A stretch of 64,000 bases of DNA from Arcobacteraceae bacterium (GCA_048268245.1 JBLWVX010000007.1:32319-96318), one strand, 5' to 3'. Shown: positions 9,220 through 39,614, counted from the first letter of the stretch. Translations and numbers: made by a program. The notes: a model not told the origin generated them from the sequence alone.

Positions 9220-10520
9220 TGTAATACCTTTCTGAACATCTGTATAATATCATTGAAATTATACCGTTCCTGTGTACCTTGAGTTAAAAACTCTCTTATT
9301 TGCTCTTTTTTAGCCATTGCTGCATCTAATTCTGGATCCATACCAGGTTTATATGCGCCTACTCTAACTAAAACTTCATTCTCTTTTATTAACGATAATA
9401 CTCTTTTTAACTTTAAAAAGCCATTATAATGCTCTTTATCCACTACTTTATCCATTACCCTTGAAGCTGATTTTAGAAGATTTATAGGGGGATAAAAACC
9501 TTGTTCAGTCAACTCTCTGGTAAGAACAATATGTCCATCTAAAATAGATCTACTTTGGTCAGCAATTGGATCATTCATATCATCCCCATCAACAAGCACT
9601 GTAAAAAAAGCAGTTAATGAGCCTTTGTCATTATTACCAGCACGCTCCATTAGCTGTGGTAAAAGAGCAAAAACTGAGGGTGGATAACCTCTACTTACAG
9701 GTGGTTCGCCTGTACTTAATCCTATTTCTCTTTGAGCCATTGCAAATCTAGTTACAGAATCCATCATAAGTAAAACATCATGACCTTTATCTCTAAAATA
9801 TTCTGCAATTGCCATAGCAGTAAAAGCTCCATATTTTCTCATAAGTGCAGATTCATCAGAAGTTGCAGCAACTATTACTGTGTTTTCTAAATTATTATCA
9901 AGATTATAGTGAATAAATTCAGGTATTTCACGACCCCTTTCACCAATAAGAGCTACAACTTTTATTTGTGCTTCACAACCTTTTACAATCATTCCCATAA
10001 GGGTAGATTTACCAACACCAGAACCTGCAAAGATACCTACTTTTTGACCTTTTCCTGATGTTAGCATAGAATCAATAGACTTTACACCTGTTGAGAATCT
10101 TTCATCAATTATTCCCCTATCAAGAGGAGCCATTGATAGCTTATTTATGGCAGAGTTTTCATGTAAATCTTTTATTTTTCCTTTATCGTCAATAGGATCA
10201 CCCAAAGCATTTACTACTCTTCCTAGAAGTCCATATCCACACTTAACAGAAAGACCTTCTTTTTGCAAGTAAACTTTATCATGTATTCTAAAACCATCAA
10301 TAAAAGAAAAAGGAACTATTGTAAAATCACTTCCATTTATAGAAGCAATCATTCCTAAAACAGTATATAGATGCTGAACAGATTCAATTTTTACAATATC
10401 CCCAACTGCAACTTCTAACCCTGTTGCTATAACAGTTGTACTAGAAATATTTTTGATTCTTCCAAAAGCAACGGATAAATCACTTGATTCAATATTACTA
10501 ATTAATTTATCTAAATCCAT
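9216..10520 (-). CDS. fliI: Flagellar export ATPase FliI
   Basis: Walker A GSGVGKST; IGERGRE, MDSVTRFAMAQREIGL, GYPPSVF and SILDGHI motifs. Confidence 0.97.
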   Translation of the reverse strand: MDLDKLISNIESSDLSVAFGRIKNISSTTVIATGLEVAVGDIVKIESVQHLYTVLGMIASINGSDFTIVPFSFIDGFRIHDKVYLQKEGLSVKCGYGLLGRVVNALGDPIDDKGKIKDLHENSAINKLSMAPLDRGIIDERFSTGVKSIDSMLTSGKGQKVGIFAGSGVGKSTLMGMIVKGCEAQIKVVALIGERGREIPEFIHYNLDNNLENTVIVAATSDESALMRKYGAFTAMAIAEYFRDKGHDVLLMMDSVTRFAMAQREIGLSTGEPPVSRGYPPSVFALLPQLMERAGNNDKGSLTAFFTVLVDGDDMNDPIADQSRSILDGHIVLTRELTEQGFYPPINLLKSASRVMDKVVDKEHYNGFLKLKRVLSLIKENEVLVRVGAYKPGMDPELDAAMAKKEQIREFLTQGTQERYNFNDIIQMFRKVLQ

Positions 10521-12514
10521 TACATCTCATCACACATTTTTTTATATAAACTATCAACTGAACCCTTTACTTCTTTACATCTTGTAATATACTCTTGTTT
10601 TTTTGCTTTATTATTTTGTAAATCATATATATTTATTAAATCATAATAAATCTTTACCTCATCATTTGGTTTTATACGTCTTGTATTCTCTAAACCTTCA
10701 ATTAAATAATCCTTTGACTTATCTATATTATTTTTATCTTCTTCAAGTTTAGATAAGGCCATTTCAACAAATGGAGAATAAATATATGCTTTTATTTCTT
10801 TTTGTTTATCATAAAGTTTATTTAAAATATCAATTGCTTCATCTTTTTTAATATGCTTTAACAAATAAAAATAGTAATCATAATAAAAATCCACTATCAA
10901 AGGATTTGTTTCATTTTTCTTAATGTAATCTTTATTTCTAGTAGCATATGAGAAAAATTTATCTAAAGCTAAACTGTCATTTTGAAGTTTTATTATTTTA
11001 TATCTAGTTAAAAATTCTTGTGCTAATACACCCTTATTATTTACCATTTCTACTTTTGCAGAATAATCTAAAGCTTCATCATAAAGATTTAATGCTAGTG
11101 CCATTTTTTCTAAATATAAGTATATATTTGCATCTCTACTTGTATTAAAAGTACTTTTAATTTGATTATAAGCCCTTTCATAAGGCACATCAATTAAACA
11201 TTCAAAGAACTTATATTTTACACTATCATCTTCAATTAGTCTCTCTAAAGTAGAGTTACTTGATGTTTTCAATGCATCATTTAAAGCAAAACATTTATTT
11301 TCATTTAAAAGCATTTTTATTCTATCTATATTAACTTCATCAAATATTGCATTCATTGATTCATATCCAAATCTTTTTGCAATTGTATTTGAAATAGTTT
11401 TGTAAATCTTCTTTTTTCTTAAGATGTCATCAAATCTTTTTGCTTCTTTTTCATTTATTAGCTCTTGTAATAGAGCTTTTTGCTGCATTGATTCTGAATT
11501 TTCATATTTTTGAGAAACTACAGTTGTTTTTAATATATTTTGTCTCATCAGTATTTCATCAATGTACATTTTTGATTTTTCTAAATAAGCACCTTGAGAG
11601 TAGTCATTAATAATATCAGTGTATAAAGCTTTTGCTTTCTCTAAATAGTAATTTGTTCTATCATACATTAGCATGTAAGTATTTGCCAATTTAAACTTAA
11701 AATCTTCAATTGACTCTTCTTTTGTTGTTCTATTTAATAACTCTTTTAAAATATTAGCTGCATGCTCTGGCATACCAGCTTTTATCAATTTATTTATTTT
11801 TCTATTTGCTAAATATGAATCATTTGCATAAAAGTCAATATTGTTTTTAAGAACTTGTGATATTAATTCATTTGCTTTTTCATAATCTTCAGTAAAAATA
11901 TATAAGTCAAATAACTCATTTGCTACAATAGTAGCTACTTCTTTATCTTTAGTTTTAGCTAAAATTTCATATAAAATTCTAATAGCCATTTTAGGCTCTT
12001 GCTGATATTTATAAACCTTAGCTAAAGCTATTTTACCTCTTGTTTTTACAATTTTATCATTAAAGTTATTTACTATAATTTCAGCAAAATATTTTGCATC
12101 TTTTGATCTATTTGATTCAAGTTTTAAATCAACTAAAAGTTCATAAGCTTTTGGTAAATCATATTCATTTATTTGAGCAGAATTAATAGCTTGCTCTAAA
12201 ACTTTTGCAGCCTCAACAATAAATCTTTTTGACTCTTTTTTTAAAGATAACTCACTATAGATAATAATAATATCAGAATTTAAAACCTTTAATCTATTTT
12301 TGTCTTTAAAACTTTTAATTTGAGCATATGCTTCATCAATTTTTCCATCTTTTGCTAATTGTCTTGCATTTTGAATTAAATCAAAGCCATCACTTATTTC
12401 TTGCTTTCTTTGCTCTGATATTTGCGTACCCGAAGAGTTAATAAAACTATAGTAAAAATCCTTTTTTGCATATAGAAAATTTATGAAAAGAAAAAATATA
12501 ATTAAAAATCTCAT
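10520..12514 (-). CDS. Secreted TPR-repeat protein, PflA-like (putative motor scaffold)
   Basis: Signal peptide MRFLIIFFLFINFLYA; all-helical TPR-like repeats; translationally coupled between flhB and fliI. The PflA resemblance is from recollection. Confidence 0.6.
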   Translation of the reverse strand: MRFLIIFFLFINFLYAKKDFYYSFINSSGTQISEQRKQEISDGFDLIQNARQLAKDGKIDEAYAQIKSFKDKNRLKVLNSDIIIIYSELSLKKESKRFIVEAAKVLEQAINSAQINEYDLPKAYELLVDLKLESNRSKDAKYFAEIIVNNFNDKIVKTRGKIALAKVYKYQQEPKMAIRILYEILAKTKDKEVATIVANELFDLYIFTEDYEKANELISQVLKNNIDFYANDSYLANRKINKLIKAGMPEHAANILKELLNRTTKEESIEDFKFKLANTYMLMYDRTNYYLEKAKALYTDIINDYSQGAYLEKSKMYIDEILMRQNILKTTVVSQKYENSESMQQKALLQELINEKEAKRFDDILRKKKIYKTISNTIAKRFGYESMNAIFDEVNIDRIKMLLNENKCFALNDALKTSSNSTLERLIEDDSVKYKFFECLIDVPYERAYNQIKSTFNTSRDANIYLYLEKMALALNLYDEALDYSAKVEMVNNKGVLAQEFLTRYKIIKLQNDSLALDKFFSYATRNKDYIKKNETNPLIVDFYYDYYFYLLKHIKKDEAIDILNKLYDKQKEIKAYIYSPFVEMALSKLEEDKNNIDKSKDYLIEGLENTRRIKPNDEVKIYYDLINIYDLQNNKAKKQEYITRCKEVKGSVDSLYKKMCDEM

Positions 12515-12517
12515 AAT

Positions 12518-13570
12518 TTACCTTTTATTCTTTTTTAGTTCATATATATATGAGAAAATTTCTGCCAATGTTTTATAAAACTCACTTGGAACTTGTTGTT
12601 CAACTTCTATTTGATCAAATAAAGCCCTTGCTAAAGCTGGATTTTCAATAATTGGAATATCATTTTCTTTTGCAATATCTTTTATTTTTATAGCTAAAAA
12701 ATCTATACCTTTAGCTATCATTTTAGGTGCAGAATCTACACTGTTATCATATTTCATAGCAACTGCATAATGGGTAGGATTTGTAATTACAACATCCGCA
12801 TCAGGAACATCTGACATCATTCTTTTTTGTGCCATTTGCATTTGTATTCTTCTAATACGACCTTTTACTTGTGGATCTCCATCCATATTTTTAAATTCAT
12901 CTTTTATCTCTTGTTTACTCATTCTAAGAGACTTCATATAATAATGTCTTGTAAAATAAAAATCAATTATAGCAAAAATAATTATAATAAGTAATATCGC
13001 AGCTAAGAAATAAGCTGTTAATTCTATCATTGTATTAATAGTACCTATAGTTTCTTGATCCATCATAGAAAGCATCATTTCACCTGTAAAAAGAAAAAGC
13101 ATAACCATTACAGCCATAATAATTATAAGTTTTAATGTCAATTTGAAAGCTTCGACTAATTTTTTTAAACCAAATACATTTTTCATTCCCTTAATTGGGT
13201 CTAGTTTTTGCAGATCTAACTTTATTGGTGTTACGATCATTCCAAACTGCACCCAATTAAAAATTAGAGCTAATACAAAAACTAATATAAAAATAGGTGC
13301 TAAAGCTTTAAAAGTTGCCATTGTTACAGAATAAGTCAAAGAATAAAATATTGTATTATCCATTTCTTGACCAATCAAATTATAACAATACATCATAAGC
13401 TTTTTGATTTCAAACATTGCAGATGATGAAAAAAACAGTAAGTATAAAGAGCCAAAAAACAGTATTGCAGCCCCTGTTACTTCCATGGATTTAGCAACAT
13501 TACCTTCTTTCTTGGCATCCTCTATTTTTTTGGGTGTGGGTTCTTCGGTTTTTTCGTCTTCATCAGCCAT
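12518..13570 (-). CDS. flhB: Flagellar export switch protein FlhB
   Basis: EKTEEPTPKK N-terminus; DGDPQVKGRIR; NPTH autocleavage motif. Confidence 0.97.
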   Translation of the reverse strand: MADEDEKTEEPTPKKIEDAKKEGNVAKSMEVTGAAILFFGSLYLLFFSSSAMFEIKKLMMYCYNLIGQEMDNTIFYSLTYSVTMATFKALAPIFILVFVLALIFNWVQFGMIVTPIKLDLQKLDPIKGMKNVFGLKKLVEAFKLTLKLIIIMAVMVMLFLFTGEMMLSMMDQETIGTINTMIELTAYFLAAILLIIIIFAIIDFYFTRHYYMKSLRMSKQEIKDEFKNMDGDPQVKGRIRRIQMQMAQKRMMSDVPDADVVITNPTHYAVAMKYDNSVDSAPKMIAKGIDFLAIKIKDIAKENDIPIIENPALARALFDQIEVEQQVPSEFYKTLAEIFSYIYELKKNKR

Positions 13571-13583
13571 TATACAATCCTAC

Positions 13584-14333
13584 TTATTGAAACTTAGATA
13601 AAAAATATTCTGTAAAAGTTTCTGTAAATACTTCCATCCCAAACATTAAAAATAGAAAAATCAAACCAAACTTCATCTGAAATGTAATAACAAAAGGTGA
13701 AAATGCTGGCATTGATTTTGTTCCATAACCATAATATAAATCTATAATAAAACCAATAAAAAATAAAGGTAAGGCAAATGCGAAAGCAAATGCGAACATT
13801 CTTTTTATCTCATCAATTGCTAGTTGAATTCCATCGTATGAAAATATATCAAAAGATCCTAAATGAACCATTGAAAAACTTTTAACTAACATTACAATTG
13901 TTAATTCATACATTCCTGTTTGAAAAAATAGTGCAATAATTATCCAATATAAAAGCCTAGATACTAAACCTTCTTGAGAACCAGTTGAAGGGTCAAACAT
14001 CATAGCCATAGATAAAGCAGTAGAGTAACCTACAAAATCACCAATAATCCTTACTGCTGCAAACATTATATGAAAAAAAAGTGAAGCTATCGCACCTAAG
14101 GTAATCTCTGAAATCAACCCTATAATAAAAGTTTCTTGCGTAATTGCTGTAGTTACATCAACAACAGGAAATAAAAATACTGTTATATAAAATGCGAAGG
14201 CTATTCTTATTCTTACACTTACTGCTGCATCACCAAATATTGGCATAAATGCAACAAATGCTAAGATTCTAGCAAGTAAGAGTAGAAATTCATAGATTAC
14301 ATTTTCATTTAATAAAGATAGAAAGGCTTCCAT
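13584..14333 (-). CDS. fliR: Flagellar export protein FliR
   Basis: Hydrophobic 249 aa; LLARILAF..FMPIFG, MMFDPSTG and MPAF..F motifs; upstream of flhB. Confidence 0.93.
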   Translation of the reverse strand: MEAFLSLLNENVIYEFLLLLARILAFVAFMPIFGDAAVSVRIRIAFAFYITVFLFPVVDVTTAITQETFIIGLISEITLGAIASLFFHIMFAAVRIIGDFVGYSTALSMAMMFDPSTGSQEGLVSRLLYWIIIALFFQTGMYELTIVMLVKSFSMVHLGSFDIFSYDGIQLAIDEIKRMFAFAFAFALPLFFIGFIIDLYYGYGTKSMPAFSPFVITFQMKFGLIFLFLMFGMEVFTETFTEYFLSKFQ

Positions 14334-14339
14334 TAAATA

Positions 14340-16874
14340 CTACATATAATCTAAATTTTTATCATCAGTTTTATTATTCTCTCTTGCTTCTAATATACTT
14401 CTAGTATCTGAGCTATTATTTTGTGAACCTTTATTTTGTTTAGTATTCTCTTGATTATTTGAAGAGTTATCGTTATTTTCATTTGAATTAAAATCTAAAT
14501 TGAAATTAGACTCTTCATTAAATGTTTTACTTAATGCATTCTTTAAACCATTTTGACTATCAATAAAGGCTTCAAGTGTAGAATTATTTGAAATATTCAT
14601 ACTAATATTAATGCCATTATCTTTATCACTTTTCATAATAATTGCAATTGAACCAAGGTTTGCTGGGTTTAAATTAATTCTAAAAGCAGTCACAGGAGGC
14701 TTATAATTTTCATACATTTGTCTAGCAACATCTGACATCATTGTAGACATTTGCTGCTTAGCACCAATAATTCTTGCTTGTATACTTTGAGCTAAAGAAG
14801 GATTAACATTTACAGTAACCTCTTCTATTTTTTCTGTAGAAGTTGAAACTGTGTTTATTAAAGTTTCAGTTGCCTTTACTGTATTTGTAATTTCTATGTT
14901 TTTATTTATTATATTTCTAATTTCATCTTGTTTAACACTATTACTCATAGCAAGTCTATCTAAAAGGCTTCTTCTATCTGTATAAGCTTTATCTTCAACT
15001 TTTATTTCTTGATTATTACTTACTTTCACCTCAACTTTTTTAGCATTTAAATCAAGCTTTTTCGCCGCTTCTTTTACATCTTCCGTACTTTTTGCATTTT
15101 TAACTTGATTTATAGCATCTGCTTTATTTGCAAGTGAGCTTTTATTGGCATTACTTCTTTGTGTGCTTAAATAAATATTTGTTAAAAAATCTTTTGAATC
15201 ATTACTATTTTTAACAGAAGAACTAGCATCATTTTTTTGTACTTCAACATTTGTTTTAACATCATTTAATGTTTTTTTCTCATCTATTTTTTTACTATCA
15301 TCAACTAATTTATCAAGCAAAGATTTACTATCTTCTTTTTTATCATCATTTTTAATAATATTAGGTGATTCAAGCTCTTTTTTTGAAATATTTACTGTTT
15401 GTTCACTATTTTTAGAATCAATTGAAGCTAATTCTTTTGCAACTTTTTCACTCTTAATATCATATGATTGACTTGAAACCAATGATTCTTTATTTAAATT
15501 ATTGTTATTCTCAACTTTTGTGTTACTTAAAACTTCACTTGATACTTTTGTTTCTTTTACTTCTTTCTTCTCAGTTAAGTTAACATTATTTATATTTTTA
15601 GTTTTTTCAAAATCTGAAACTTCTTTAGAATTTGAACTATTAACATCTTTTTTATCAATAGTTTCAGTTTTAAGCTCTGTTGTTTTTAATATATCTTGAT
15701 TTTTTTCTGTTTTAACTGAACTATTTGAAGACACAATGATGTCAAGATTAGTACTCTTATCATCAATTGTTGTACTATTTAATACTTGTATATTTTTTGA
15801 TTCTTCAGAAACTTCATTTTGTATTTGATTCTCATTTTTACTTATTTGAGTTAAATTAGCTTCTTGTGTATTCTCAAAAGCTTTAGAATTAACACTAATA
15901 TTTTCTTTATTAGATTTCTTTTCACTTATTGAAACTTCTTCTTTTTTATCATTATCAGTGATTATTTTATTCTGAGAGTTTTTATCTGACGCTTCAACTG
16001 TCTTATTATTTAAAGTCGAATTATCTACTTTTAAAGTATCTTTTTTTTCTTCTACTATTTTATCTTTTACACCTGATTTTTCTAAATCTTTATTTTCAAC
16101 ATCAGTTTTAACTTTTGTATCAGGCAAAGACTCTGCTTTTATATCTTTTGTTTTTTTATCACTAGAGTTTTCTACATCATTTGAATTATTAGGTAAACTA
16201 TTAGCAGTATTATTTTTTTCATTCTCTAAATTATCTTTAGCATCTTTTTTAGAAATATTGTGAAGGAGATCTTTTTTTTCTTCAATTTTATTATCAATAT
16301 TTTTACTACTTGTTTTATTCTCTTCAGAAGACTCATCTAAGGTATCTTTATTAGATGTTGAAACTTTTTCAACATCTTTAATATTTTCTTTTTCTGTTTT
16401 AATTTCTTTTTTAGATTCACTTTTCGCTTCAACTATTAATCTATCAAGTAATGAACTTTGTTTAGAAGAAGATGTATTAGTACTATTTTTTGAAGTCTTT
16501 AAAGTTGAACTATCTTCAGTATTAACTTTTGCTAAATCTGTATTTTTTGTATTAGACTGTTTTAAATCACTATCTTTTAATGAAGTTTTATCTTCTTGAT
16601 TTATATTTTTATCAGTAGTCTTAACTTCTTTTTTTACTTCTTCATTTATAGTTGATTTATTAACATTACTTTCATTTTCACTATTTCTTTCTTTAGTGGG
16701 AATTTCTGTTTTATTTTCATTTAAAACAGGTTTTTTTTCTTCTTTCATTCCACTTAACATAGAATCAAAAAAAGAAGCTCCTTCTTTTTTTTCTCCCTTA
16801 TTAGAAGTTTTATTACTAGATGAAGCTTCATTTACAGTAGTCTGTTTTGTTAAAAAATCAACTTGTTTACTCAT
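14340..16874 (-). CDS. fliK: Flagellar hook-length control protein FliK (long, low-complexity)
   Basis: Long K/E/S/N-rich disordered region; C-terminal T3S4 domain FRINLNPANLGSIAI. Confidence 0.8.
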   Translation of the reverse strand: MSKQVDFLTKQTTVNEASSSNKTSNKGEKKEGASFFDSMLSGMKEEKKPVLNENKTEIPTKERNSENESNVNKSTINEEVKKEVKTTDKNINQEDKTSLKDSDLKQSNTKNTDLAKVNTEDSSTLKTSKNSTNTSSSKQSSLLDRLIVEAKSESKKEIKTEKENIKDVEKVSTSNKDTLDESSEENKTSSKNIDNKIEEKKDLLHNISKKDAKDNLENEKNNTANSLPNNSNDVENSSDKKTKDIKAESLPDTKVKTDVENKDLEKSGVKDKIVEEKKDTLKVDNSTLNNKTVEASDKNSQNKIITDNDKKEEVSISEKKSNKENISVNSKAFENTQEANLTQISKNENQIQNEVSEESKNIQVLNSTTIDDKSTNLDIIVSSNSSVKTEKNQDILKTTELKTETIDKKDVNSSNSKEVSDFEKTKNINNVNLTEKKEVKETKVSSEVLSNTKVENNNNLNKESLVSSQSYDIKSEKVAKELASIDSKNSEQTVNISKKELESPNIIKNDDKKEDSKSLLDKLVDDSKKIDEKKTLNDVKTNVEVQKNDASSSVKNSNDSKDFLTNIYLSTQRSNANKSSLANKADAINQVKNAKSTEDVKEAAKKLDLNAKKVEVKVSNNQEIKVEDKAYTDRRSLLDRLAMSNSVKQDEIRNIINKNIEITNTVKATETLINTVSTSTEKIEEVTVNVNPSLAQSIQARIIGAKQQMSTMMSDVARQMYENYKPPVTAFRINLNPANLGSIAIIMKSDKDNGINISMNISNNSTLEAFIDSQNGLKNALSKTFNEESNFNLDFNSNENNDNSSNNQENTKQNKGSQNNSSDTRSILEARENNKTDDKNLDYM

Positions 16875-16877
16875 AAT

Positions 16878-17354
16878 CTATGCTTTCAATATATCTAATG
16901 TTTTTGTATCGATATTCTTATGCGTGTTAAATGCTGCAACATTCGACTCATAAGACCTCATTGCTTCAATTAAGTTAACCATTTCAATTACTGGATTAAT
17001 ATCAGGATAAGCTACATATCCTTCTTCATTTGCATCTGGATGTTGGGGTTCAAATCTCATTACAGGCTTAGCATCAGATTCAACAATAGATTTAACACCT
17101 ACTCCTCTTAAAGCTACATCAGTTTGTTCTTTTGCACTCATATTATTCAAAGATGAAGCACTATTTTCTTTAGTATTAGTTTTACCTAATAATATATCCT
17201 CAAAAACTACTTCTTGCTTTTTGTAAGGACCACCTTGTTCTGTGTGTGTTGTCTTTGCGTTTGCTATATTTGCACTTGTAACATTTATTCTTGTTCTTTC
17301 CGCACTCATACCAGAAGTTGCTATATTATATCCATCAAAAAAACCCATTATCAA
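16878..17354 (-). CDS. flgC: Flagellar rod protein FlgC
   Basis: SGMSAERTRINVTSANIANA; HPDANEEGYVAYPDINPVIEM. Start may be the ATG at 17348. Confidence 0.97.
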   Translation of the reverse strand: MIMGFFDGYNIATSGMSAERTRINVTSANIANAKTTHTEQGGPYKKQEVVFEDILLGKTNTKENSASSLNNMSAKEQTDVALRGVGVKSIVESDAKPVMRFEPQHPDANEEGYVAYPDINPVIEMVNLIEAMRSYESNVAAFNTHKNIDTKTLDILKA

Positions 17355-17361
17355 CTCCTAT

Positions 17362-17658
17362 TTATATTTGCATTCTCATAACTTCTTTGTATGCATTTAA
17401 AGCTTTGTTTTTAACTTCTAGTCCAAGTTTCATAGAAAGTTCAGCTTCCTCTATTTGTTGAACTGCATGTTGAAGATTTGTTACTTTTCCACTAGCTATT
17501 TCTTCCATGGCTTTATAACCTTGAAGTTGTTCTTTATTCACTTCAGATACAGCATCATTTAGCATATTTGAAAATGTAGAATCTTTTTTGTTATCTATAT
17601 TTACATTATCTTTAAGTGTCAGTGGATTTATTGAGTCTGCTATTGAAGATATATTCAT
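17362..17658 (-). CDS. fliE: Hook-basal body protein FliE
   Basis: AELSMKLGLEVKNKALNAYKEVMRMQI C-terminus. Confidence 0.95.
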   Translation of the reverse strand: MNISSIADSINPLTLKDNVNIDNKKDSTFSNMLNDAVSEVNKEQLQGYKAMEEIASGKVTNLQHAVQQIEEAELSMKLGLEVKNKALNAYKEVMRMQI

Positions 17659-17668
17659 CTATTATCCT

Positions 17669-31119: not shown

Positions 31120-31148
31120 ACTTTTATAAAAAATATTATTCTACATAC

Positions 31149-31157: not shown

Positions 31158-31194
31158 TAAACTTTTAAGAAATAAAATAGCAACTTGTATTTAA

Positions 31195-31860
31195 CTAAAT
31201 AACAGTATCTAAGGTTTCTAACATTGAAGCAACTTTTGCTTCAATATTTCCATCAAAGTTACCTAAATCACTTGCAATTACAACTCCACCTGCAGCAACA
31301 TTAGGATCTTCTCTTAATTCTATATAAGGCTCAAGTGCTAATTGGTCTTTTAAAAGTTGATAATCTTTAGGATTCAAATGAATTTGAACTTTTGAAGCAG
31401 TTTTAATTTTATCTAGTAAATGAGAAATAGTTTGTTTAGCAATCTTTGCTGAATTCTCTCCAACTTCAATACTAATTATTTTTTGTGCAATTGAGATAGA
31501 AGTTTTTAAAAGTTTTGATTCCATTTGAAAAGTTGCTTGCTCAAAAAAAGCAGCATAATGTTTTAAATCTTTTATAGCTTGTACTACTTGTGCATCAATA
31601 TCTCTACCTTGAACCCCACCATTTTCAATACTATTAACTTTTTGTGAAATTTGACTAATTTGTGCTGCAAGATTCCTAACTTCACTTAAAACAGGATCTA
31701 TATGTCCATTTAATTCTCTAGTATCTAAAACAGCCTGAGTAGTAGGTGTCTCTTCTTGTATACTATTTGAACTATTAACAAAATTGCCTAATTCATACTT
31801 TTGTACTTCACCACTTCCATTTAAAACTTTTGCATTTGATCGAACATTATTACTTGCCAT
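31195..31860 (-). CDS. fliH: Flagellar assembly protein FliH
   Basis: IHLNPKD...DPNVAAGGVVIASDLGNFDG C-terminal domain; after fliG. Confidence 0.92.
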   Translation of the reverse strand: MASNNVRSNAKVLNGSGEVQKYELGNFVNSSNSIQEETPTTQAVLDTRELNGHIDPVLSEVRNLAAQISQISQKVNSIENGGVQGRDIDAQVVQAIKDLKHYAAFFEQATFQMESKLLKTSISIAQKIISIEVGENSAKIAKQTISHLLDKIKTASKVQIHLNPKDYQLLKDQLALEPYIELREDPNVAAGGVVIASDLGNFDGNIEAKVASMLETLDTVI

Positions 31861-32873
31861 TATTCATCCATTTCTCTATCAATTATTCCATCTTCAATCA
31901 TTTTTTGTGCAACATCAAGCATTTTTCTTTGTGCAGCTTCGATATCTTTAATCTTAACTTTATTAAGCATTTCAAACTCTTCTTTAAATCTATCCCTTGC
32001 TCTTTGAGACATAGCACCAGTTATTTTTTCCATATCTTCATCAGGAGCATTTTTCATAGCAACAGCAACATCTGCTGTATCAACATTTTGTAAAATCTTC
32101 ATAACATATTCAGTATCAAGATTTAATAAGTCTTCAAATACAAACATGTTTTCTTTGATCTTTGTAGCTAAAGAAGTATCCACACCATTAATATTTTTAA
32201 GGATATCTTGTGATTTTGGACCTAATCTATTTAACATATCTGCAACAACTTTAACACCACCAACATCAACAATAGAAGACAATAATGATTCTAACTTTTT
32301 CTCAAGTACTACAGAAATAGTTCTTACAACATCAGGTGAAACGTCTTTTATTGTTGCCATTTGCATAGTAACCTTAACTCTTACTTCTTCTTCTAATTGC
32401 ATTAAAACTTCAGCTGACTTTGGTGCATCCATATGAGATAAAATTACTGCAATTGTATGAGGAGATTCATCTTTAATAAAGTCAGATAACTGTTTTGGAT
32501 TAATAGCATCTAAATAAGAAAAAGATTGTGATGCTAATCTTAATCTTGATAACTTTGCTAATACTTCATCAGCTTCGCCCTTACCAAGTGATTTATATAA
32601 AATATCCCTTGCAAAATCATAACCACCAGAACTAATAAAACCTTTTGTTCTCGTATATAAATGAAACTCTTCTAAAATAGCTAAAGATGTTTCTTTATCT
32701 ATAGAGTTTATTTGAGTAATCGAAGTTGAAATATCTTCAACTATCTCTTTTGGTAAGTGTTGAAAAATTTTTACAGTTGCTTCTTCTCCTATTAAAACAA
32801 AGAATCTTGCAACTTTGTCTTTCATGGACATTCCTTTTAGAACTTCATGTAAACTTTCACTCTTTTCTGACAT
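31860..32873 (-). CDS. fliG: Rotor protein FliG
   Basis: GGYDFAR, ESPHTIAVILS, GGVKVVADMLN, MFVFEDL and MSQRA motifs. Confidence 0.97.
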   Translation of the reverse strand: MSEKSESLHEVLKGMSMKDKVARFFVLIGEEATVKIFQHLPKEIVEDISTSITQINSIDKETSLAILEEFHLYTRTKGFISSGGYDFARDILYKSLGKGEADEVLAKLSRLRLASQSFSYLDAINPKQLSDFIKDESPHTIAVILSHMDAPKSAEVLMQLEEEVRVKVTMQMATIKDVSPDVVRTISVVLEKKLESLLSSIVDVGGVKVVADMLNRLGPKSQDILKNINGVDTSLATKIKENMFVFEDLLNLDTEYVMKILQNVDTADVAVAMKNAPDEDMEKITGAMSQRARDRFKEEFEMLNKVKIKDIEAAQRKMLDVAQKMIEDGIIDREMDE

Positions 32874-34612
32874 TATTTCTTACCTTTTAAATTTGCATCA
32901 CCCTCTGATAATAAAAGTTCAATCATTGAAGCCATTTCAGCTGGATTATTATTTACTTCTTTATCTAATTCTTCAACTAAAACTTCATACTTCGCAGCTG
33001 ATTCTTCATCTAAGCCCTCAATATTATTTAGAATTTGACTCTTGATTTTATTTTTTAATCTACCTTTTGCTGATTCTCTGTCAAATTGATCACCATAATC
33101 TCCTAACATATCATCAACAAGATTTTCATCATCTACTTCATCTTTCTTCTTTGCAGTTCCATCACCTAATATAACAACTTCATGATTTACTATAAACTTT
33201 TTGTAGAAAACAAATAGTAAAACTGCTGCAATTAAATATTGAATATATTCACTGAACTCTTTAAGTATAGTCTTAACCATTGCAAGAGTATCTAATGAAG
33301 AAGCTACTGAACTTCCACCTTCAATTGGGTTACCATTTTCATCAAGCTGTGCACCATTTACTGAAAGTGGCTTAACTCCAATGAATTTAAAGTCTCTTAC
33401 AGTTACCTTATCTCCCCTTTTACTATCATAGCCTACTGTATCTTGAACAATTGATTCAATTGATGCCAAAAACTCTTCTTTGTTCTCAACATCATTTAAT
33501 ACAGTTGAATCAAATGTAACTCCTGCTGTAATTCTGTTAATTCTTGAATAGTTATTATCTTTTTGTTTTATTATCTTTTTCGAAATTTCATAGTTTGTTA
33601 CAGTATTAGTTCCTTCACTATTTGATTGTGAATTCCCATTACCAGCAGCACCACCTGGAGTTTGTATATTATTATCAACCCCAGCAGTTCCTCCTGTACT
33701 ACCTGTTGTTCCTTGAGAAGAAGATATATTTTCTATAACCTGTTGAGATCTAATAGTTCCTTCTGGATCATAAATCTCTTCTTGAATATCTTGCATAATA
33801 AAATCAAGTGAAACTGAAACTTTTGCTACAACTCTTCCTGGACCAACAAAAGGTTCTAGTAATTCAACTATCTTCTTTTCATAATCATCTTCAATTTTCT
33901 TTTTATATTTTGACTGAGAATATGATTTTTGTGTTGCCATATCATCTTTTGATTTTTGAAGTAAACTTCCATCTTGATCAATTAATTTAATATTCTCATG
34001 AGTTAAATCAGGAACTGCAGAGGCAATAAAGTTTTTGATACCATCAATTTGTTTTTGCGTTAAAAAAACACCTGGCTTTAAAGATAATACAGCAGAAGCA
34101 GTAGGAAGAGTTTTTCTCTCAGTAAATATTGTATCTTTAGGAATAGCTATTTTCACACTTGCTCTTAAAACACCTGTTAAAGACTCCAAAGATCTTGAAA
34201 GTTCCCCCTCTAAAGCTCTTAGATATTTAACTTTATTCTCAAAATTAGTAGTCCCCAATGATGATTTTTCAAAAATTTCCCATCCAACATGTTTACTAGT
34301 TGAAGCTTCACTTGTTACAAGTTTGATTTTTGCAATATTAATAAACTCTTTTGAAGTTTTCAAAGTAAGATTATTACCAGAACCAATTACACTAAAAGCA
34401 ATACCAGAGGCTTCAAGTTCATCACTTGCTAACATTACTTGTGATTTTGTTAAATTTGAAGCAATTGTATAGTTTAGTTTTTTGTCTTCTGCTTTTATAT
34501 TTGAATAAACTAATAGACCAATCAATAATATAAATAAAAGAGAAAATCCCCCAATTATAACTGCTCTTTGAGCAGCATTTAAATTATTTATAAATTTTAG
34601 AAGTTGATCCAT
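32873..34612 (-). CDS. fliF: MS-ring protein FliF
   Basis: Two TM helices; GWEIFE, RALEGELSRSL, PTASAVL and TNYEISK motifs. Confidence 0.96.
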   Translation of the reverse strand: MDQLLKFINNLNAAQRAVIIGGFSLLFILLIGLLVYSNIKAEDKKLNYTIASNLTKSQVMLASDELEASGIAFSVIGSGNNLTLKTSKEFINIAKIKLVTSEASTSKHVGWEIFEKSSLGTTNFENKVKYLRALEGELSRSLESLTGVLRASVKIAIPKDTIFTERKTLPTASAVLSLKPGVFLTQKQIDGIKNFIASAVPDLTHENIKLIDQDGSLLQKSKDDMATQKSYSQSKYKKKIEDDYEKKIVELLEPFVGPGRVVAKVSVSLDFIMQDIQEEIYDPEGTIRSQQVIENISSSQGTTGSTGGTAGVDNNIQTPGGAAGNGNSQSNSEGTNTVTNYEISKKIIKQKDNNYSRINRITAGVTFDSTVLNDVENKEEFLASIESIVQDTVGYDSKRGDKVTVRDFKFIGVKPLSVNGAQLDENGNPIEGGSSVASSLDTLAMVKTILKEFSEYIQYLIAAVLLFVFYKKFIVNHEVVILGDGTAKKKDEVDDENLVDDMLGDYGDQFDRESAKGRLKNKIKSQILNNIEGLDEESAAKYEVLVEELDKEVNNNPAEMASMIELLLSEGDANLKGKK

Positions 34613-34628
34613 ATATTATTTATCCTGA

Positions 34629-35036
34629 TTAATTTTTAGCTGATGATTCTATAACTGATCTAAATAGTCTTGAATCTTTTTTAATTGCTGCTTGCAATGC
34701 ATCAAAAATTACTTTATTTTTTGACATTTCACTCATTTGTGTATCTAAGTTTACATTATTCCCATCATTTTGTTCTTCTAAACCTTTTACTTTAACTAAT
34801 CTTGGATTAGGAATATTAGAATTATGATTTATGTTTGGCAAGTGTTTGCCACTTGTTTGAGCTAAAGCTAATCTTGGCTCTTTTTTCTGATTTGATAGTT
34901 CATCTTCAAAAACTAATTCTTTAGTCTTATAATTTGGTGTATTTATATTAGCAATATTACTCGATATTACTTTTTGTCTTTCACCTCTAAAGTTTAAATG
35001 TGCAAAGAGTGTGTTTGTTACGCTACTTGCTTCCAT
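34629..35036 (-). CDS. flgB: Rod protein FlgB
   Basis: RQKVISSNIANINTPNYK; DGNNVNLDTQM. Confidence 0.96.
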   Translation of the reverse strand: MEASSVTNTLFAHLNFRGERQKVISSNIANINTPNYKTKELVFEDELSNQKKEPRLALAQTSGKHLPNINHNSNIPNPRLVKVKGLEEQNDGNNVNLDTQMSEMSKNKVIFDALQAAIKKDSRLFRSVIESSAKN

Positions 35037-35755
35037 TATCTAGTATTGTTCCCTATTTTATCAATTAATTTAGAATTTATTTCATCTATACTTGAAACTG
35101 CCTTTTGAGATTGTTCAAATCTTCTATGTGCATCAATTAATTCAACCATTGCAGTAACTGAATTAACATTTGATTTTTCAATAGCACCTTGTTCTAACAA
35201 ACCATCTGTATTTTCAAATAATAGAACTTCATTTTCATCTTTTAGTTTATAAGTATTATTCCCGATTTTTTGAAGGTTTGAGTAAGGAGTTTGAGCAACA
35301 CCAATATTATTTTTAAAACCTTCCTCTACAAGTACAGGTTCATTATCAGCATTAAGTACATTATTTCCATTAGAATCAACTAAAAACCCATCAAAACTTT
35401 TAAATGCACCATCTCTGCTATAAACTATGTCTCCGTTTTGATTTTGTATCTTAAAAAAAGTATCTGGTTGAGTTAATGCAAAATCCAAATTATTCCCTGT
35501 AGGAGCTATTGGTCCCATTTCACCATTTATAAACTTTGCATCGATTTTTGGAATATTATTTGTAACTTCATTTATTTTTGTTGGAATAAACCCTTCATCT
35601 TTTGCTCTTTGAAGATAATAATTAAAAGTAGTTTCTGTTGTTCCTTCTTGTTTAAATCCATTAGTATTAACATTTGCTAAGTTATTACTTATTTGGTCTA
35701 ATCTATTTATTTGATTGACCATTGATGCTGCAAGAGGGTATGTTCCTTGATTCAT
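35036..35755 (-). CDS. flgF: Proximal rod protein FlgF
   Basis: ISNNLANVNTNGFK, YSRDGAF, IEKSNVNSVTAMVELI; 239 aa. Confidence 0.85.
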   Translation of the reverse strand: MNQGTYPLAASMVNQINRLDQISNNLANVNTNGFKQEGTTETTFNYYLQRAKDEGFIPTKINEVTNNIPKIDAKFINGEMGPIAPTGNNLDFALTQPDTFFKIQNQNGDIVYSRDGAFKSFDGFLVDSNGNNVLNADNEPVLVEEGFKNNIGVAQTPYSNLQKIGNNTYKLKDENEVLLFENTDGLLEQGAIEKSNVNSVTAMVELIDAHRRFEQSQKAVSSIDEINSKLIDKIGNNTR

Positions 35756-35764
35756 AAAATATCC

Positions 35765-36793
35765 TTACTTTCCAAACTCTTCAATTAGTTTATCTAAATC
35801 TTCACCTATCAAAACTTCACCTTCATCTCCATGAATATGTTTTGCAACTGCAATTTCTTGTTCAGTATAATCATCTTCAAATAAATTGTTAAGATATAAT
35901 GAAAGTTTTCTAATAACTGACATAACTCTTTCAATTTTTTGTCTGTTAATATCATTAAACTGCATAAGTTCCATTGCTTCAAAAATTTTCATATCTTCTG
36001 CATTTATTATAGTTTTCATGTCTTCTAAGCTCTTATTTACTTCTTCAACTTTTTGAAGATGATGTTTAAAAACTTCAATATTTGGAAATTTTGCATTTAA
36101 TGATTTTAATAACTTATCTTGAGAAACTAAAAACCCTTCTATATCTGAAACTTTTGTTCTAAATTCATTATTATTATCTAAAGCAAGACTTAACACATCA
36201 AAAATTTGAGAAACTTTTTCTTCTGAATCATTTGCTACTTGATTTAATTGATTTACAACTTTTGTATCTTTCTCAGCAGGCAAGGGAATTACACCTTCAT
36301 TTATTTTAGTGTCAGTCCAATCTTGTACAATTTTTTCAGGGCTTACTTCCTCTTTTTTAGGCTCAGGATTAGGTCTTGTATCCACAGTAGGTGTATATTC
36401 AGTAATCCCATCTATTTGAGATAATAAATCATCAATGTCATCAGATGAAGCCTGTTCACTAGAAGTATTCATTTCTAAATCATTTAGAATATCATCTGTT
36501 TTCACTTCATCATTTATTTCAAAATCTTTTAATAAAGCATCAATATCATCATTATCAACAGTTTCATTAGAAGTTTCAATATCTTTTGTTTCTTCAACAT
36601 CATTTATTTCAGAAACTGATCTTTCTTCTTGAACTGGTTCAATTTTTTCTTCATTTTGTGTCTGAGAGATTAATTCATCAATTTCACTTGTATCTACAGT
36701 TTCAGATGCTTTATCTGATGATTCAGATGACTCATCATCAGAAATATCAAGTCCATTCATTAATGCTTCAATTTCTTCTTGGCTCATACTCAT
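35765..36793 (-). CDS. cheZ: Campylobacterota-type CheZ phosphatase
   Basis: Catalytic MQFNDINRQKIERV (DxxxQ); N-terminal MSQEEIEALM; C-terminal DLDKLIEEFG peptide; follows cheY. Confidence 0.85.
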   Translation of the reverse strand: MSMSQEEIEALMNGLDISDDESSESSDKASETVDTSEIDELISQTQNEEKIEPVQEERSVSEINDVEETKDIETSNETVDNDDIDALLKDFEINDEVKTDDILNDLEMNTSSEQASSDDIDDLLSQIDGITEYTPTVDTRPNPEPKKEEVSPEKIVQDWTDTKINEGVIPLPAEKDTKVVNQLNQVANDSEEKVSQIFDVLSLALDNNNEFRTKVSDIEGFLVSQDKLLKSLNAKFPNIEVFKHHLQKVEEVNKSLEDMKTIINAEDMKIFEAMELMQFNDINRQKIERVMSVIRKLSLYLNNLFEDDYTEQEIAVAKHIHGDEGEVLIGEDLDKLIEEFGK

Positions 36794-36810
36794 AATAACG
36801 CCTTATTAAC

Positions 36811-37185
36811 TTATTTTTTTAATACCCCATCAAGCTTCTCTTTTAAAACTTCTGCATTGAATGGTTTTACAATATAATTATTTACCCCAGCTTTTAAAGC
36901 TGTAATAACTTCACCTTTTCCACCTTCAGTTGTAATCATGATAATAGGAGTCTTTTGATGAGCACCCTCTGCTCTTACTTTTTTAACTAAATCTAAACCA
37001 TTCATATTAGGCATATTCCAATCAGTTAAAATAACATCGTAGTTAGACTCGCCTAATAATTTCCAAGCTTTAACACCATCTTCAGCCTCATCAAAATCAT
37101 CTTTTGCATAACCTAACTGCATTACAACATTACCAATAATTCTCCTCATAGTAGAACTATCATCAACTATTAGAATTCTCATCAT
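36811..37185 (-). CDS. cheY: Chemotaxis response regulator CheY
   Basis: VDDSSTMRRII, TDWNMP, ITTEGGK and NYIVKPF motifs. Confidence 0.95.
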   Translation of the reverse strand: MMRILIVDDSSTMRRIIGNVVMQLGYAKDDFDEAEDGVKAWKLLGESNYDVILTDWNMPNMNGLDLVKKVRAEGAHQKTPIIMITTEGGKGEVITALKAGVNNYIVKPFNAEVLKEKLDGVLKK

Positions 37186-37223
37186 ACAACCCTTTAATCT
37201 TTATTAATATTCAATTATTGATT

Positions 37224-37229
37224 ATTATA
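37224..37229 (-). promoter_or_regulatory. Putative -10 (TATAAT) for the cheY-led flagellar run
   Basis: TATAAT on the minus strand about 40 nt upstream of cheY, with TTAAGT further upstream. The region is very AT-rich, so specificity is limited. Confidence 0.45.
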
Positions 37230-37309
37230 TATAATTTGTTTTAAATATCCACTTAATCTAAACTGATTAATAACTATATAGATTTATCTTTTTTTAATTG
37301 TTCTTAAAA

Positions 37310-37315
37310 TATAAT
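37310..37315 (+). promoter_or_regulatory. Putative -10 (TATAAT) for the flgG operon
   Basis: TATAAT at 37310 (second copy at 37320); AAGG SD before the ATG at 37348. Confidence 0.45.
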
Positions 37316-37347
37316 AACTTATAATCTAAAACTCTAAAGGAAATTCG

Positions 37348-38136
37348 ATGATAAGAGGACTTTACACTGCTGCAACAGGTATGAATTCTATGCAACATCA
37401 AATTGATGTTACATCAAACAATATTGCAAACGTAAACTCAACAGGCTTTAAACAAGACAGAGCTGAATTTCAAGACTTAATTTATGAAACTTTAAACTAT
37501 ACAGCAGGTCAAACCTCACAAACAACTCTTAATCCAACAGGAATAGATGTTGGTTTAGGTGTAAGAATTTCTGGTGTTCAAAAAAACTTTACAGAAGGTG
37601 ACTTAAAACTCACTTCAAACCCTTTAGACATTGCTATTGAGGGAAAAGGGTTTTTTCAAATTACTCTTCCAAGTGGTGAAACTGCCTATACAAGAAATGG
37701 TACATTTAAACTTAATGCAGAAGGAACAATTGTAAATGGAAATGGGTATCCACTTTCACCACAAATAGTGGTACCTGATAATGTAACAAAATTAACTGTT
37801 GGTAAAGATGGAACCATTACAGCTACAAATCCTCAAACAGAAGAGATTGTAAATTTAGGACAAATAGAAATTGCTGATTTTATTAACCCAGCAGGTTTAG
37901 CTCCCATGGGTGAGTCTTTATTTAAAGAAACAGAAGCTTCTGGTGCTGTTTTTACAGGTAATCCAACTACAGAGCAGTTTGGTAATACAAGGCAAGGTAT
38001 GATTGAGTTATCAAACGTTAAACTTGTTAATGAAATGGTAGATTTGATTACAGCACAAAGAGCATATGAAGCTAACTCTAAAGCAATTACAACTACTGAT
38101 GGTATGCTTGATACAGTTAATAGGTTAAAAAGATAG
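37348..38136 (+). CDS. flgG: Distal rod protein FlgG
   Basis: 262 aa; NNIANVN, FQDLIYE, YTRNGTF, LSNVKLVNEMVDLITAQRAYEANSK. Confidence 0.97.
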   Translation: MIRGLYTAATGMNSMQHQIDVTSNNIANVNSTGFKQDRAEFQDLIYETLNYTAGQTSQTTLNPTGIDVGLGVRISGVQKNFTEGDLKLTSNPLDIAIEGKGFFQITLPSGETAYTRNGTFKLNAEGTIVNGNGYPLSPQIVVPDNVTKLTVGKDGTITATNPQTEEIVNLGQIEIADFINPAGLAPMGESLFKETEASGAVFTGNPTTEQFGNTRQGMIELSNVKLVNEMVDLITAQRAYEANSKAITTTDGMLDTVNRLKR

Positions 38137-38151: not shown

Positions 38152-38565
38152 ATGAATTTAAATGAATTAAAAAAACTTCGAGAAGAAAAATTTTTAGCTC
38201 ATAAAAGGAAAAAGAGAGAGTACTATTTAAAAAATAAAGCAAAGAAAAAAAGAGAAGTTATTGATTATGAAAATGAATTAAATGATTTAAACTTTGTAAA
38301 TAAAATTAAAGAAATTGCTAAGGTACAAAAAGCACATGTTGATGATAGAAAAGAGTTGATTGTAGCAAAAATCAATGAATATAAAAACAAGAAAAAAGAG
38401 TACTACGAAGAAAATAAAGAAAAAAGATTAGAGTACGATAAAGAGTATAGAGAAAAGAAAAAAGAAGAGTTAAGAGAGTATAGACGTCAATATTATCAAA
38501 AAAATAAAGAGAAAATATTAGCAAGACAAAAAGAAAAAAGAAAATATTCCAAAAAGAGTGACTAA
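38152..38565 (+). CDS. Highly charged K/E/R/Y-rich hypothetical protein
   Basis: 137 aa with repeated (E/Q)YYxxNK motifs; its stop overlaps the next start (TAATG). Confidence 0.7.
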   Translation: MNLNELKKLREEKFLAHKRKKREYYLKNKAKKKREVIDYENELNDLNFVNKIKEIAKVQKAHVDDRKELIVAKINEYKNKKKEYYEENKEKRLEYDKEYREKKKEELREYRRQYYQKNKEKILARQKEKRKYSKKSD

Positions 38566-39614
38566 TGGCAGAAGAACAAAAAGAAGAAGAGTTAGAATTA
38601 ACACTAGAAGAGACTCAAGACTCTTCAAATGATACACAAACAAATGATAAAGTTAATGACAATAACTCAAATAATGAAGATACGTCTGATGAAAAACCAA
38701 GTTTTAAAAAGAAAAAAGATGATAATAAAATCAAAAAAATACTTTTTGGAGTAATTGGTTTTTTAGTTTTAACACTTATAATTGGATTAATACTTTATTT
38801 AATGGGATTTTTTGATCCAGAAGAACAAAAAGAAGAAATTCCTGATAAACCCATAGCTCAAAAACAAATTACTCAGCCAAAAGATGAGTACAAATTTAGT
38901 TTAAAAGATGTAAACACTGATAATTTAAATAAAGAGCTTTCAAAACTAACAAACAAAGATATTTTAGCTAAAAAAGAACAAGATAAGATAGAAGAACAGA
39001 AGCAAATATTAGAGAAAGAAAGACAAGAATATAAAGAAAAACTTTCCCAGCAAGAAGAAGAATTAACAAAAGAAAAAGAACTACTTCAGGCTAAAAAAGA
39101 GAAATTAGAAATACAAAAAAATGAACTTGAAATTTTAAAAGAACAAGCAAAATCTTTAAAAGAAGAAATGCTAAGAGAAAAAGAAATATTAGAAGTTGAA
39201 AGAGAAAAATTAATTCTTGCTCAAATGGAAATAGAAAATACTATTAAACATGAAGAGAATAAGAAAGAACAAGAAATGTCAAAGCAAACACCTTCAAATG
39301 AATTAATAACTGCTTCTAAGGAGCAAATGCTAACAAATACAAATGAATCACTTGATACAGAATTTGTAAATCTAATTAATGTAGCAAAAATAAAAGGTGA
39401 ACTATTTAAAGATTATTTAGACAAAATTTTAGCTATTCATAATAATGTATTACTATGTAGAGATGACTTCAATAATATTGAAATATATTTTGGTCCATTT
39501 ACTGATAATAATCAAAGAAATGAGATATTCAATAAACTAAATACAACTGACTTTTCAAATGCATATGAAGTTGAACTAACAAGAGAAGAGTTTGATAAAA
39601 GATGTAATTATTAG
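38565..39614 (+). CDS. Bitopic membrane protein: acidic N-terminus, TM helix, long coiled coil, C-terminal SPOR-like domain
   Basis: TM ILFGVIGFLVLTLIIGLILYLMGFF; E/K-rich heptads; IEIYFGPFTD..QRNEIFNKL...FSNAYEV is SPOR-like; two Cys in the C-terminal domain. Confidence 0.65.
   Translation: MAEEQKEEELELTLEETQDSSNDTQTNDKVNDNNSNNEDTSDEKPSFKKKKDDNKIKKILFGVIGFLVLTLIIGLILYLMGFFDPEEQKEEIPDKPIAQKQITQPKDEYKFSLKDVNTDNLNKELSKLTNKDILAKKEQDKIEEQKQILEKERQEYKEKLSQQEEELTKEKELLQAKKEKLEIQKNELEILKEQAKSLKEEMLREKEILEVEREKLILAQMEIENTIKHEENKKEQEMSKQTPSNELITASKEQMLTNTNESLDTEFVNLINVAKIKGELFKDYLDKILAIHNNVLLCRDDFNNIEIYFGPFTDNNQRNEIFNKLNTTDFSNAYEVELTREEFDKRCNY

Follow-up and report, generated by a model that had tools for sequence, protein, structure and literature searches.

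What are the six open reading frames (ORFs) without a core flagellar identity that lie among the flagellar genes of an Arcobacteraceae bacterium (GCA_048268245.1), and do they make up a motor scaffold of their own? The stretch of DNA analyzed here (the window) comprises 64,000 nucleotides (nt) of JBLWVX010000007.1 (32319–96318), and positions are counted from its first letter. An initial annotation of this DNA had proposed that the six ORFs encode one alternative scaffold system, distinct from that of Campylobacter, with tetratricopeptide repeat (TPR) spokes or rim, membrane anchors and a peptidoglycan tether. The homologies, folds, gene order and co-occurrence found here point to a known scaffold in a new form, along with three candidate parts. 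Very probably, three of the six are lineage forms of the known accessory proteins PflA, PflB and FlgV, and the other three, called p109, p137 and p349 here, are conserved genes linked to the flagellum.

Homologues of known accessory proteins in the flagellar locus

The locus is a large flagellar locus of the Arcobacter-type motor, with a G+C content of 27 %. A run of flagellar genes occupies the minus strand from approximately 5.9 to 37.2 kb and is followed on the plus strand by flgG and two ORFs. All six ORFs were found where the initial annotation had placed them, and the spacing to neighboring flagellar genes is tight, from −56 to +87 nt (the TPR protein given there as approximately 680 residues has 689). 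The features it had read from them were recovered as well: two hydrophobic helices in p112, a transmembrane (TM) helix and coiled coil in p109, a charge on p137, which is positive, and a TM helix, long helix and SPOR-type fold in p349. We take the ORFs to be genes and not chance frames, because p349, p112, p109 and p137 have full-length, stop-free matches in 131–137 of 151 genomes of the family. The local gene order is the same in 19–20 loci from approximately 17 genera. No Pfam or NCBIfam model of a flagellar family reaches its cut-off with any of the six, and TPR689 is matched by generic TPR models alone. The absence of a core flagellar identity thus holds for the curated libraries of hidden Markov models (HMMs); it does not hold for the literature, where PflA, PflB and FlgV are named or proposed in A. 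butzleri.

The first TPR protein (TPR664; 10520..12514, minus strand; 664 residues) shares 1 nt with fliI and is separated from the preceding flhB by 3 nt. Inspection of its sequence reveals a signal-peptide-like start, with a hydrophobic segment ending in LYA before KK, a conserved N-terminal peptide at approximately residues 17–45, and a C-terminal motif whose two cysteines are invariant. There are 463 database relatives at E ≤ 0.001. The best 120 of these 463 are 64–100 % identical to TPR664, and the named ones among them are all from Arcobacteraceae; a protein named from Arcobacter roscoffensis is 97 % identical. Neither the single sequence nor a profile of 18 sequences, drawn from the best 120 of the 463, matches a sequence in the Protein Data Bank (PDB). 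The profile reaches the C-terminus of ORFs of 746–812 residues in 7 of 115 genomes outside the family, from five families (E 2.5e-9 to 2.3e-4), and the two of these seven ORFs that were compared with the PDB match the solved PflA (9hmf chain K) at 8e-57 and 1e-59. When the TPR664 family was aligned to these seven ORFs as PflA orthologues with hhalign, the probability was 99.9 (E 6.3e-31, 596 columns), and residues 21–663 aligned onto PflA positions 157–779. The AlphaFold model (predicted local distance difference test score 83.4) is an all-α TPR superhelix of 37 helices with no strands of three or more residues. The best PDB match to this model in Foldseek, the comparison that the initial annotation had suggested, is C. 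jejuni PflA (9hmf_K, E 5.7e-14; next match 1.9e-8).

TPR664 is a true PflA homologue. It is one without the β-sandwich, because the hhalign alignment begins at PflA position 157 and the model is all-helical; the first approximately 150 residues of PflA, which form the sandwich, are missing. The N-terminal peptide, which aligns to the PflA linker, and the C-terminal two-cysteine motif are retained. In C. jejuni, PflA without the β-sandwich and linker no longer binds PflB. With no sandwich in TPR664, ring assembly would have to differ or use the linker alone.

The second TPR protein (TPR689; 23949..26018, minus strand) has 689 residues in the longest frame, and its true start may be Met7 or Met11. 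It begins with a signal-peptide-like segment followed by TPRs. In a phmmer search of the PDB, residues 143–662 match H. pylori PflB (9leq_B, 3.9e-8) and the 820-residue chain of C. jejuni (9hmf_L, 6e-8); the next matches are designed TPRs at 2e-4. On this homology, we assign TPR689 as PflB. Both large proteins are thus of the PflA/PflB periplasmic scaffold kind, as had been supposed. The family PflB proteins begin with a signal-like segment of approximately 20 residues and then a conserved ESQPxIxF in 17 of 19 N-termini. In the ten N-termini examined from other families, PflB starts with an acidic tail of 35–65 residues and a TM helix, and TPR689 has neither this N-terminal cytoplasmic tail nor the anchor. 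The Arcobacter-type motor has been used as an evolutionary intermediate between simple motors and the high-torque Campylobacter-type motors. If the domain that recruits PflB in C. jejuni is indeed missing from PflA here, and the membrane anchor from PflB, ring assembly must differ, which bears on the stepwise evolution of the scaffold.

We noted separately that the N-termini of PflB and FliL are alike across Campylobacterota, each with a MAEE-type acidic tail, a lysine cluster and a TM helix (hhalign 95.4 %). The shared N-terminus may reflect common origin or common constraints.

The third protein (p112; 17669..18007, minus strand; 112 residues) lies 68 nt after flhG and 10 nt before fliE. Its family (n = 20) measures 102–123 residues, with two hydrophobic segments in all 20. 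The first of these helices carries a conserved GFF in which F24 is invariant and F25 is kept in at least 90 %. In other families, the ORF after flhG encodes a two-helix protein with the motif GFFxG in 22 of 24 loci, and 15 of these 22 ORFs served as the FlgV reference alignment after seven near-duplicates were dropped. Aligned to these 15, the p112 family scored a probability of 92.9 (E 3.6e-7) with GFF on GFF. All 43 controls stayed below this value: reversed alignments (n = 2) reached at most 3.4, column shuffles (n = 20) at most 2.7, block shuffles (n = 20) at most 58.3, and an unrelated profile 4.7. Position after flhG, size and two helices agree with FlgV as well, and p112 is most likely a divergent FlgV.

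The stator genes motB and motA (21116..22656, minus strand; Pfam MotB_plug/OmpA and MotA_ExbB) lie between flgJ and fliY inside the cluster. Vibrio PomA is the best PDB match to MotA (E 1.6e-40), along with several MotA/MotP proteins, whereas C. jejuni MotA follows at 1.5e-13. A single gene with the MotB plug is present in the genome, so this is the only stator set. By homology, the stator can be described as PomA-like and not Campylobacter-type, and the non-Campylobacter stator of the initial annotation is borne out.

Much of this is in line with what is reported for A. butzleri. Chaban et al. 2018 describe PflA and PflB as present and a 16-fold proximal ring without visible stators; the FlgP/FlgQ disk is missing, and an outer-membrane disk is seen. 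PflB of A. butzleri is listed in Table 2 of Gao et al. 2014. The S8 Table of Mo et al. 2022 names a 666-residue gene between fliI and flhB as PflA and a 696-residue gene beside flaG as PflB, and calls small neighbors FlgA, FlgN, FlgJ and FlaG; the names of the small cluster ORFs used here follow that table by position. FlgV does not appear in it, and the counterparts of p112, p109, p137 and p349 are unnamed. Botting et al. 2023 proposed the gene after flhG in A. butzleri as FlgV from its size, topology and predicted fold, with a negative blastp search. An alternative system of unassigned genes is therefore not what the locus holds, since PflA, PflB and FlgV had already been named or proposed for A. 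butzleri and the 16-fold ring imaged. For p109, p137 and p349, our literature search found no paper that assigns them.

Three genes that accompany the flagellum

Presence and absence of p112, p109, p137 and p349 were scored by single-protein searches of the 151 family genomes, in which full-length, stop-free matches were counted. FlhA was found in 138 genomes. Among these FlhA-positive and the 13 FlhA-negative genomes, p112 is present in 136 and 0 (136 of 151 in total), p109 in 133 and 0 (133), p137 in 136 and one (137), and p349 in 129 and two (131). Retention in non-flagellated relatives, which the initial annotation had named as evidence that would speak against it, is thus rare, an outcome in its favor. 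The counts are not independent events, as the genomes are related. The FlhA-negative genomes come from approximately six genera, and most of them measure 1.2–2.0 Mb; one of 2.9 Mb (G028, 100 % complete) lacks p112, p109, p137 and p349. In the exception for p137 (G062), a shortened flgG, p137 and a long-form p349 adjoin next to a transposase-associated ORF at the contig end.

Two genomes deserve separate mention. The most divergent one of the family (G042) has two copies of FlhA, 65 % and 63 % identical to the FlhA of this locus, and its cluster contains p112-, p109- and p137-like genes at 28–40 % identity. The single-protein search did not find p349 there, and the locus beside p137 (L038) ends at a contig end. 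In the genus of G007 (contig 8), the supercluster is rearranged, and the p137–p349 pair, still intact, lies approximately 17 kb beyond flhA on the side opposite to its usual place.

The gene p109 (25963..26292, minus strand; 109 residues) encodes an N-terminal TM helix and a coiled coil of approximately 85 residues. It is translationally coupled to pflB, whose longest frame it overlaps by 56 nt, and lies directly upstream of pflB in 20 of 20 loci. With a p109 profile, full-length relatives were found in 59 of 115 genomes of nine other families, mostly 110–133 residues long (E 1e-12 to 3e-6), and in 9 of the 9 loci examined in those families the relative lies between rpiB and apt. The reciprocal profile has p109 as its sole match in this genome (E 3e-8), and rpiB and apt are on other contigs; p109 therefore looks like the rpiB–apt gene relocated next to pflB. 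Neither profile found the p109 family in four non-flagellated genomes of the phylum (without FlhA and FlhG). Against the Pfam family DivIC, p109 scores 18.1 bits (E 0.0024; cut-off 28.9), and its likeness to FtsB/DivIC is one of architecture only. We also considered whether p109 might be a detached N-terminus of PflB and rejected this, since the p109 profile matches only generic coiled coils in the PDB and its relatives are free-standing proteins of approximately 110 residues.

These data bear on the view that p109, p137 and p349 are passengers of the cluster with envelope, division or regulatory roles, and that their absence pattern comes from genome reduction and shared ancestry. The rpiB–apt setting of the p109 family, the syntenic 80-residue ORF kept by one non-flagellated genome, the FtsB/DivIC-like architecture of p109 and the small size of most FlhA-negative genomes all fit it, and SPOR proteins are classically associated with the divisome. 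Three observations speak for genes tied to the flagellum instead. The complete 2.9 Mb genome lacks FlhA and all four genes. The order beside pflB and flgG was kept in every locus examined, across approximately 17 genera. Where p137 persists without FlhA, in a single genome, a remnant of flgG and the adjoining p349 persist with it. We consider passengers unlikely and continue with the three as flagellum-linked genes.

The last gene of the group, p349 (38565..39614, plus strand; 349 residues), overlaps p137 by 1 nt. In the predicted structure, a disordered acidic tail leads into a TM helix (residues 54–80), with a conserved juxtamembrane motif beside it, and a single helix of 120 residues (118–237). 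The C-terminal domain (267–347) is a confident β-α-β-β-α-β arrangement that is superposable on solved SPOR domains, which are folds of approximately 75 residues. We assign this domain to the SPOR fold, and its membership in PF05036 is by predicted structure only. The two cysteines of the domain are invariant in 18 sequences and, together with the lysine cluster before the TM helix, fit a periplasmic location of the C-terminal domain. As a result of this fold, the peptidoglycan tether of the initial annotation is plausible. Among the listed papers that mention both SPOR domains and flagellar motors, no title or opening of an abstract deals with a flagellar SPOR protein. In some genera, p349 is longer and has an extra N-terminal domain of approximately 150 residues. 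Weak CheX matches (PF13690) were found in 5 of 5 such long forms, with E values of 7.7e-6 to 0.0096, all under the 27-bit cut-off; the p349 of this locus lacks the CheX-like domain.

SPOR domains target septal glycan. It is possible, if still doubtful, that p349, with p137, is a polar organizer and a functional analogue of HubP/FimV instead of a part of the motor. The SPOR domain would then target denuded glycan left where the cell has divided, the place of the future new pole, and the tail would recruit factors for chemotaxis or flagellar placement. The SPOR fold, the tail that is acidic in 17 of 18 orthologues, and the CheX matches in all five long forms are consistent with this. The layout described for HubP/FimV, namely a peptidoglycan-binding domain, a TM helix and an acidic cytoplasmic region, fits as well. 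However, p349 has no LysM domain or FimV motif, its topology is reversed with respect to HubP, and the CheX matches are under the cut-off. Adjacency to flgG and loss together with the flagellum suit a part of the motor equally.

The gene p137 (38152..38565, plus strand; 137 residues) begins 15 nt after flgG. The protein is very basic, with a net charge of +11 to +25 in 19 of 19 orthologues and an isoelectric point of 9.5–10. It has neither a TM helix nor a signal peptide and contains a tyrosine-rich helical repeat; pairs of tyrosines are invariant in the alignment. Identity among the family genomes is 55–96 %. No match was found in Pfam or in the PDB, the latter searched with the p137 profile as well, and in the ESM Atlas only its own Campylobacterota clusters were found. 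A profile search of 1.84 billion proteins gave 362 matches at E ≤ 0.001. Full-length relatives form a narrow family, and the other matches cover the C-terminal repeat only, two to four times each. Taken together, p137 is basic and apparently cytoplasmic, with no feature of a scaffold.

The repeat itself, K-x-Y-Y-x-x-N-K-E-K, is rich in tyrosine, lysine and glutamate and recurs in many proteins of 200–400 residues; no Pfam family covers it. The two repeat-bearing proteins in which both motifs were read (P0144 and P0155) have an N-terminal zinc ribbon and a C-terminal HNH-type motif. In another, P0147, there are cysteine-pair motifs, and no HNH-type motif is visible.

One may ask whether p137 is a nucleic-acid-binding regulator of flagellar genes that stands in for RpoN, FlgRS, FliA and FlgM, all of which Arcobacter has lost. 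Its charge and isoelectric point, its conservation, and the occurrence of its repeat in zinc-ribbon/HNH-type proteins would fit, and Mo et al. 2022 report no DNA-binding regulator in or near the loci. However, p137 has no known DNA- or RNA-binding domain and matches nothing in the PDB or Pfam, and composition alone may explain the repeat match. Its gene is also translationally coupled to that of p349, a membrane protein whose tail is acidic, which suggests that the partner of p137 is a protein. We regard a regulator as rather improbable and prefer p137 as a flagellum-linked gene and candidate partner of p349.

A possible arrangement and its weaknesses

From these data we infer locations, binding partners and roles that would fit together as follows. 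Exported PflA and PflB would, by homology, build the spoke-and-rim proximal ring that is seen as a 16-fold ring in A. butzleri, and this ring would hold the PomA-like stators at a wide radius. FlgV would be a two-helix inner-membrane protein, which in H. pylori forms a ring at the MS/C-ring junction. A membrane-anchored coiled coil, p109, would be made together with PflB. p349 would sit in the inner membrane, and its long periplasmic helix would offer the SPOR domain to the peptidoglycan at the flagellated pole or the motor. Its acidic tail would lie in the cytoplasm, with p137 as the basic cytoplasmic partner.

The profile of p349, when searched outside the family, finds the N-termini of FliL and PflB, besides three weak matches that fall in its coil/SPOR part. 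The N-terminal membrane module of p349 aligns with that of PflB from other families at an hhalign probability of 96.3 % over 67 columns. FliL N-termini used as controls gave 93.8–95.4 %, and a reversed control gave 48.3 %. The similarity therefore appears largely generic and is a lead only. On a more far-reaching view, the supercluster would hold motor parts that have escaped notice. p349 would carry the tail/anchor module that PflB lost and tie the PflAB ring to the peptidoglycan through its SPOR domain, with p137 on the tail. The move of p109 from the rpiB–apt slot to pflB would in turn mark the phylum-wide p109 family, including its C. jejuni and H. pylori members, as an overlooked flagellar component. 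This view is tentative and, in our view, unlikely to hold in full.

The same data bear on the original proposal that the six genes form one scaffold system distinct from that of Campylobacter. Four of the genes co-occur with the flagellum, PflA and PflB are inside its cluster, the TPR architectures differ from those of C. jejuni, and the module of p349 resembles that of PflB. Yet PflA, PflB and FlgV are homologous to Campylobacter parts, the N-terminal likeness between p349 and PflB is largely generic, and neither p137 nor p109 shows a link to the ring. The p109 family is phylum-wide and elsewhere sits between rpiB and apt, and p137 lacks any scaffold feature. We hold a single system to be very improbable. 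Of the proposed re-partitioning, a lead survives: PflA lacks the sandwich, PflB lacks the tail and anchor, and p349 has a similar N-terminal module, with the reservation that the similarity is mostly generic.

The assignment that we prefer, three known accessory proteins in lineage form and three flagellum-linked genes, also has to face contrary observations. Recruitment of PflB in C. jejuni needs the PflA β-sandwich plus linker, and TPR664 has no sandwich. Alone or as a profile, TPR664 finds no PDB sequence, so that its link to PflA runs through intermediate orthologues and the fold only. The HMM search with p112 was credible in only six family genomes out of 121 genomes of the phylum; the other 14 matches are fragments at E ≥ 0.001, many with stops. 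The final glycine of GFFxG is not kept in p112, being threonine, serine or another residue in the family, and the downstream gene is fliE and not fliA. For p349, the Pfam SPOR model gives no match for the protein of this locus and at best E 0.077 in one of six orthologues scanned, and Foldseek returns nothing at E ≤ 0.001 and does not single out SPOR. The gene was missed in nine FlhA-positive genomes, and two FlhA-negative ones, which are 85 % and 88 % complete, have it. The repeat of p137 resembles that of zinc-ribbon/HNH-type proteins, a likeness that favors binding of nucleic acid over partnership with p349. The relatives of p109 stand in a housekeeping context (rpiB–apt), and one non-flagellated genome has kept an ORF of 80 residues with a TM helix and coiled coil at the same place, so that for the wider p109 family a flagellar role is at most a possibility. 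Finally, genome reduction could account for part of the co-loss, given that the genomes are related and most of the FlhA-negative ones are small.

With p109, p137 and p349 there is now a short, testable list of candidates for motor parts or polar placement. The relatives of p109 in C. jejuni-type and H. pylori-type genomes have apparently never been tested for motility; among the papers found with putative locus tags of the rpiB–apt gene, no title deals with motility. The initial annotation had stated that such a system had not been dissected genetically in this lineage, and we likewise found no such study; in a 56-mutant A. butzleri transposon screen, only fliH, fliD, nspC and sasA were hit. 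The transposon tool used there makes tests feasible.

Neighboring genes and comparison with known systems

The supercluster (5912..38136) includes, by Pfam and NCBIfam, flhA, flgL, fliI, flhB, fliR, fliK, flgC, fliE, flhG, flhF, flgA, flgN and flgJ. It also holds fliY, flaG, two flgE-like genes, flgD, fliN, fliH, fliG, fliF, flgB, flgF, cheZ, cheY and flgG. The positional FlgA (136 residues) and FlgN (125 residues), which together span 20051–20807 on the minus strand, have no match to their own families in Pfam or NCBIfam and take their names from the published table only; their frames overlap by 32 nt. The tandem FlgE-like genes (26341–30118, minus strand) encode 743 and 486 residues, and the A. 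butzleri table gives 723 and 583. A CheZ-like gene (35765–36793, minus strand) follows cheY within the cluster; its product matches NF041271 (E 2.6e-31) in the C-terminal half only and has an acidic N-terminal extension of approximately 160 residues. A 493-residue ORF directly downstream of flhA (4428–5909, minus strand) matches the BatD domain (PF13584, E 6e-16) but no flagellar family. A zinc-ribbon coiled-coil protein of the CdsZ type (44147–44893, minus strand; NF047363, E 4.7e-24, below the cut-off) lies 4.5 kb past the cluster. Relatives of this protein reportedly have flagellar regulatory roles in H. pylori.

The closest solved system is the PflA/PflB proximal disk of C. jejuni and H. 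pylori (9hmf chains K and L; 9leq). It shares with this locus homologous TPR superhelices, the C-terminal cysteine motif of PflA and genes placed in the flagellar locus, and by homology and inspection of the signal segments both proteins would be exported to the periplasm here as well. In contrast to that disk, PflA here is shorter by the β-sandwich of approximately 150 residues, PflB comes without the acidic tail and TM anchor, and the stator is PomA-like; the literature also describes the genus as lacking FlgP/FlgQ. FlgV of H. pylori and C. jejuni agrees with p112 in its place after flhG, its size of approximately 110 residues, two hydrophobic helices, GFF and the profile–profile match. It differs in that blastp and HMM searches detect no similarity, the last glycine is replaced in p112, and the downstream gene is fliE, not fliA.

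p349 differs from SPOR proteins such as RlpA, DamX, DedD, FtsN and CwlC in having no sequence-level SPOR match above the cut-off, in being encoded in the flagellar cluster and lost with it, in its 120-residue helix, and in the CheX-like domain found in some genera. Its resemblance to HubP/FimV is functional only and lies in a periplasmic domain for binding peptidoglycan (putative in p349), a single TM helix and a cytoplasmic region that is acidic; p349 has SPOR and not LysM, the opposite topology, no FimV motif, and is much smaller. The A. butzleri motor, with its 16-fold proximal ring, is the expected orthologous motor. The gene orders fliI–pflA–flhB and flaG–pflB are the same, and the PflA and PflB lengths of 666 and 696 residues there correspond to 664 and 689 here; in the S8 Table, the A. 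butzleri motAB genes are at a distant locus, whereas here they lie inside the cluster.

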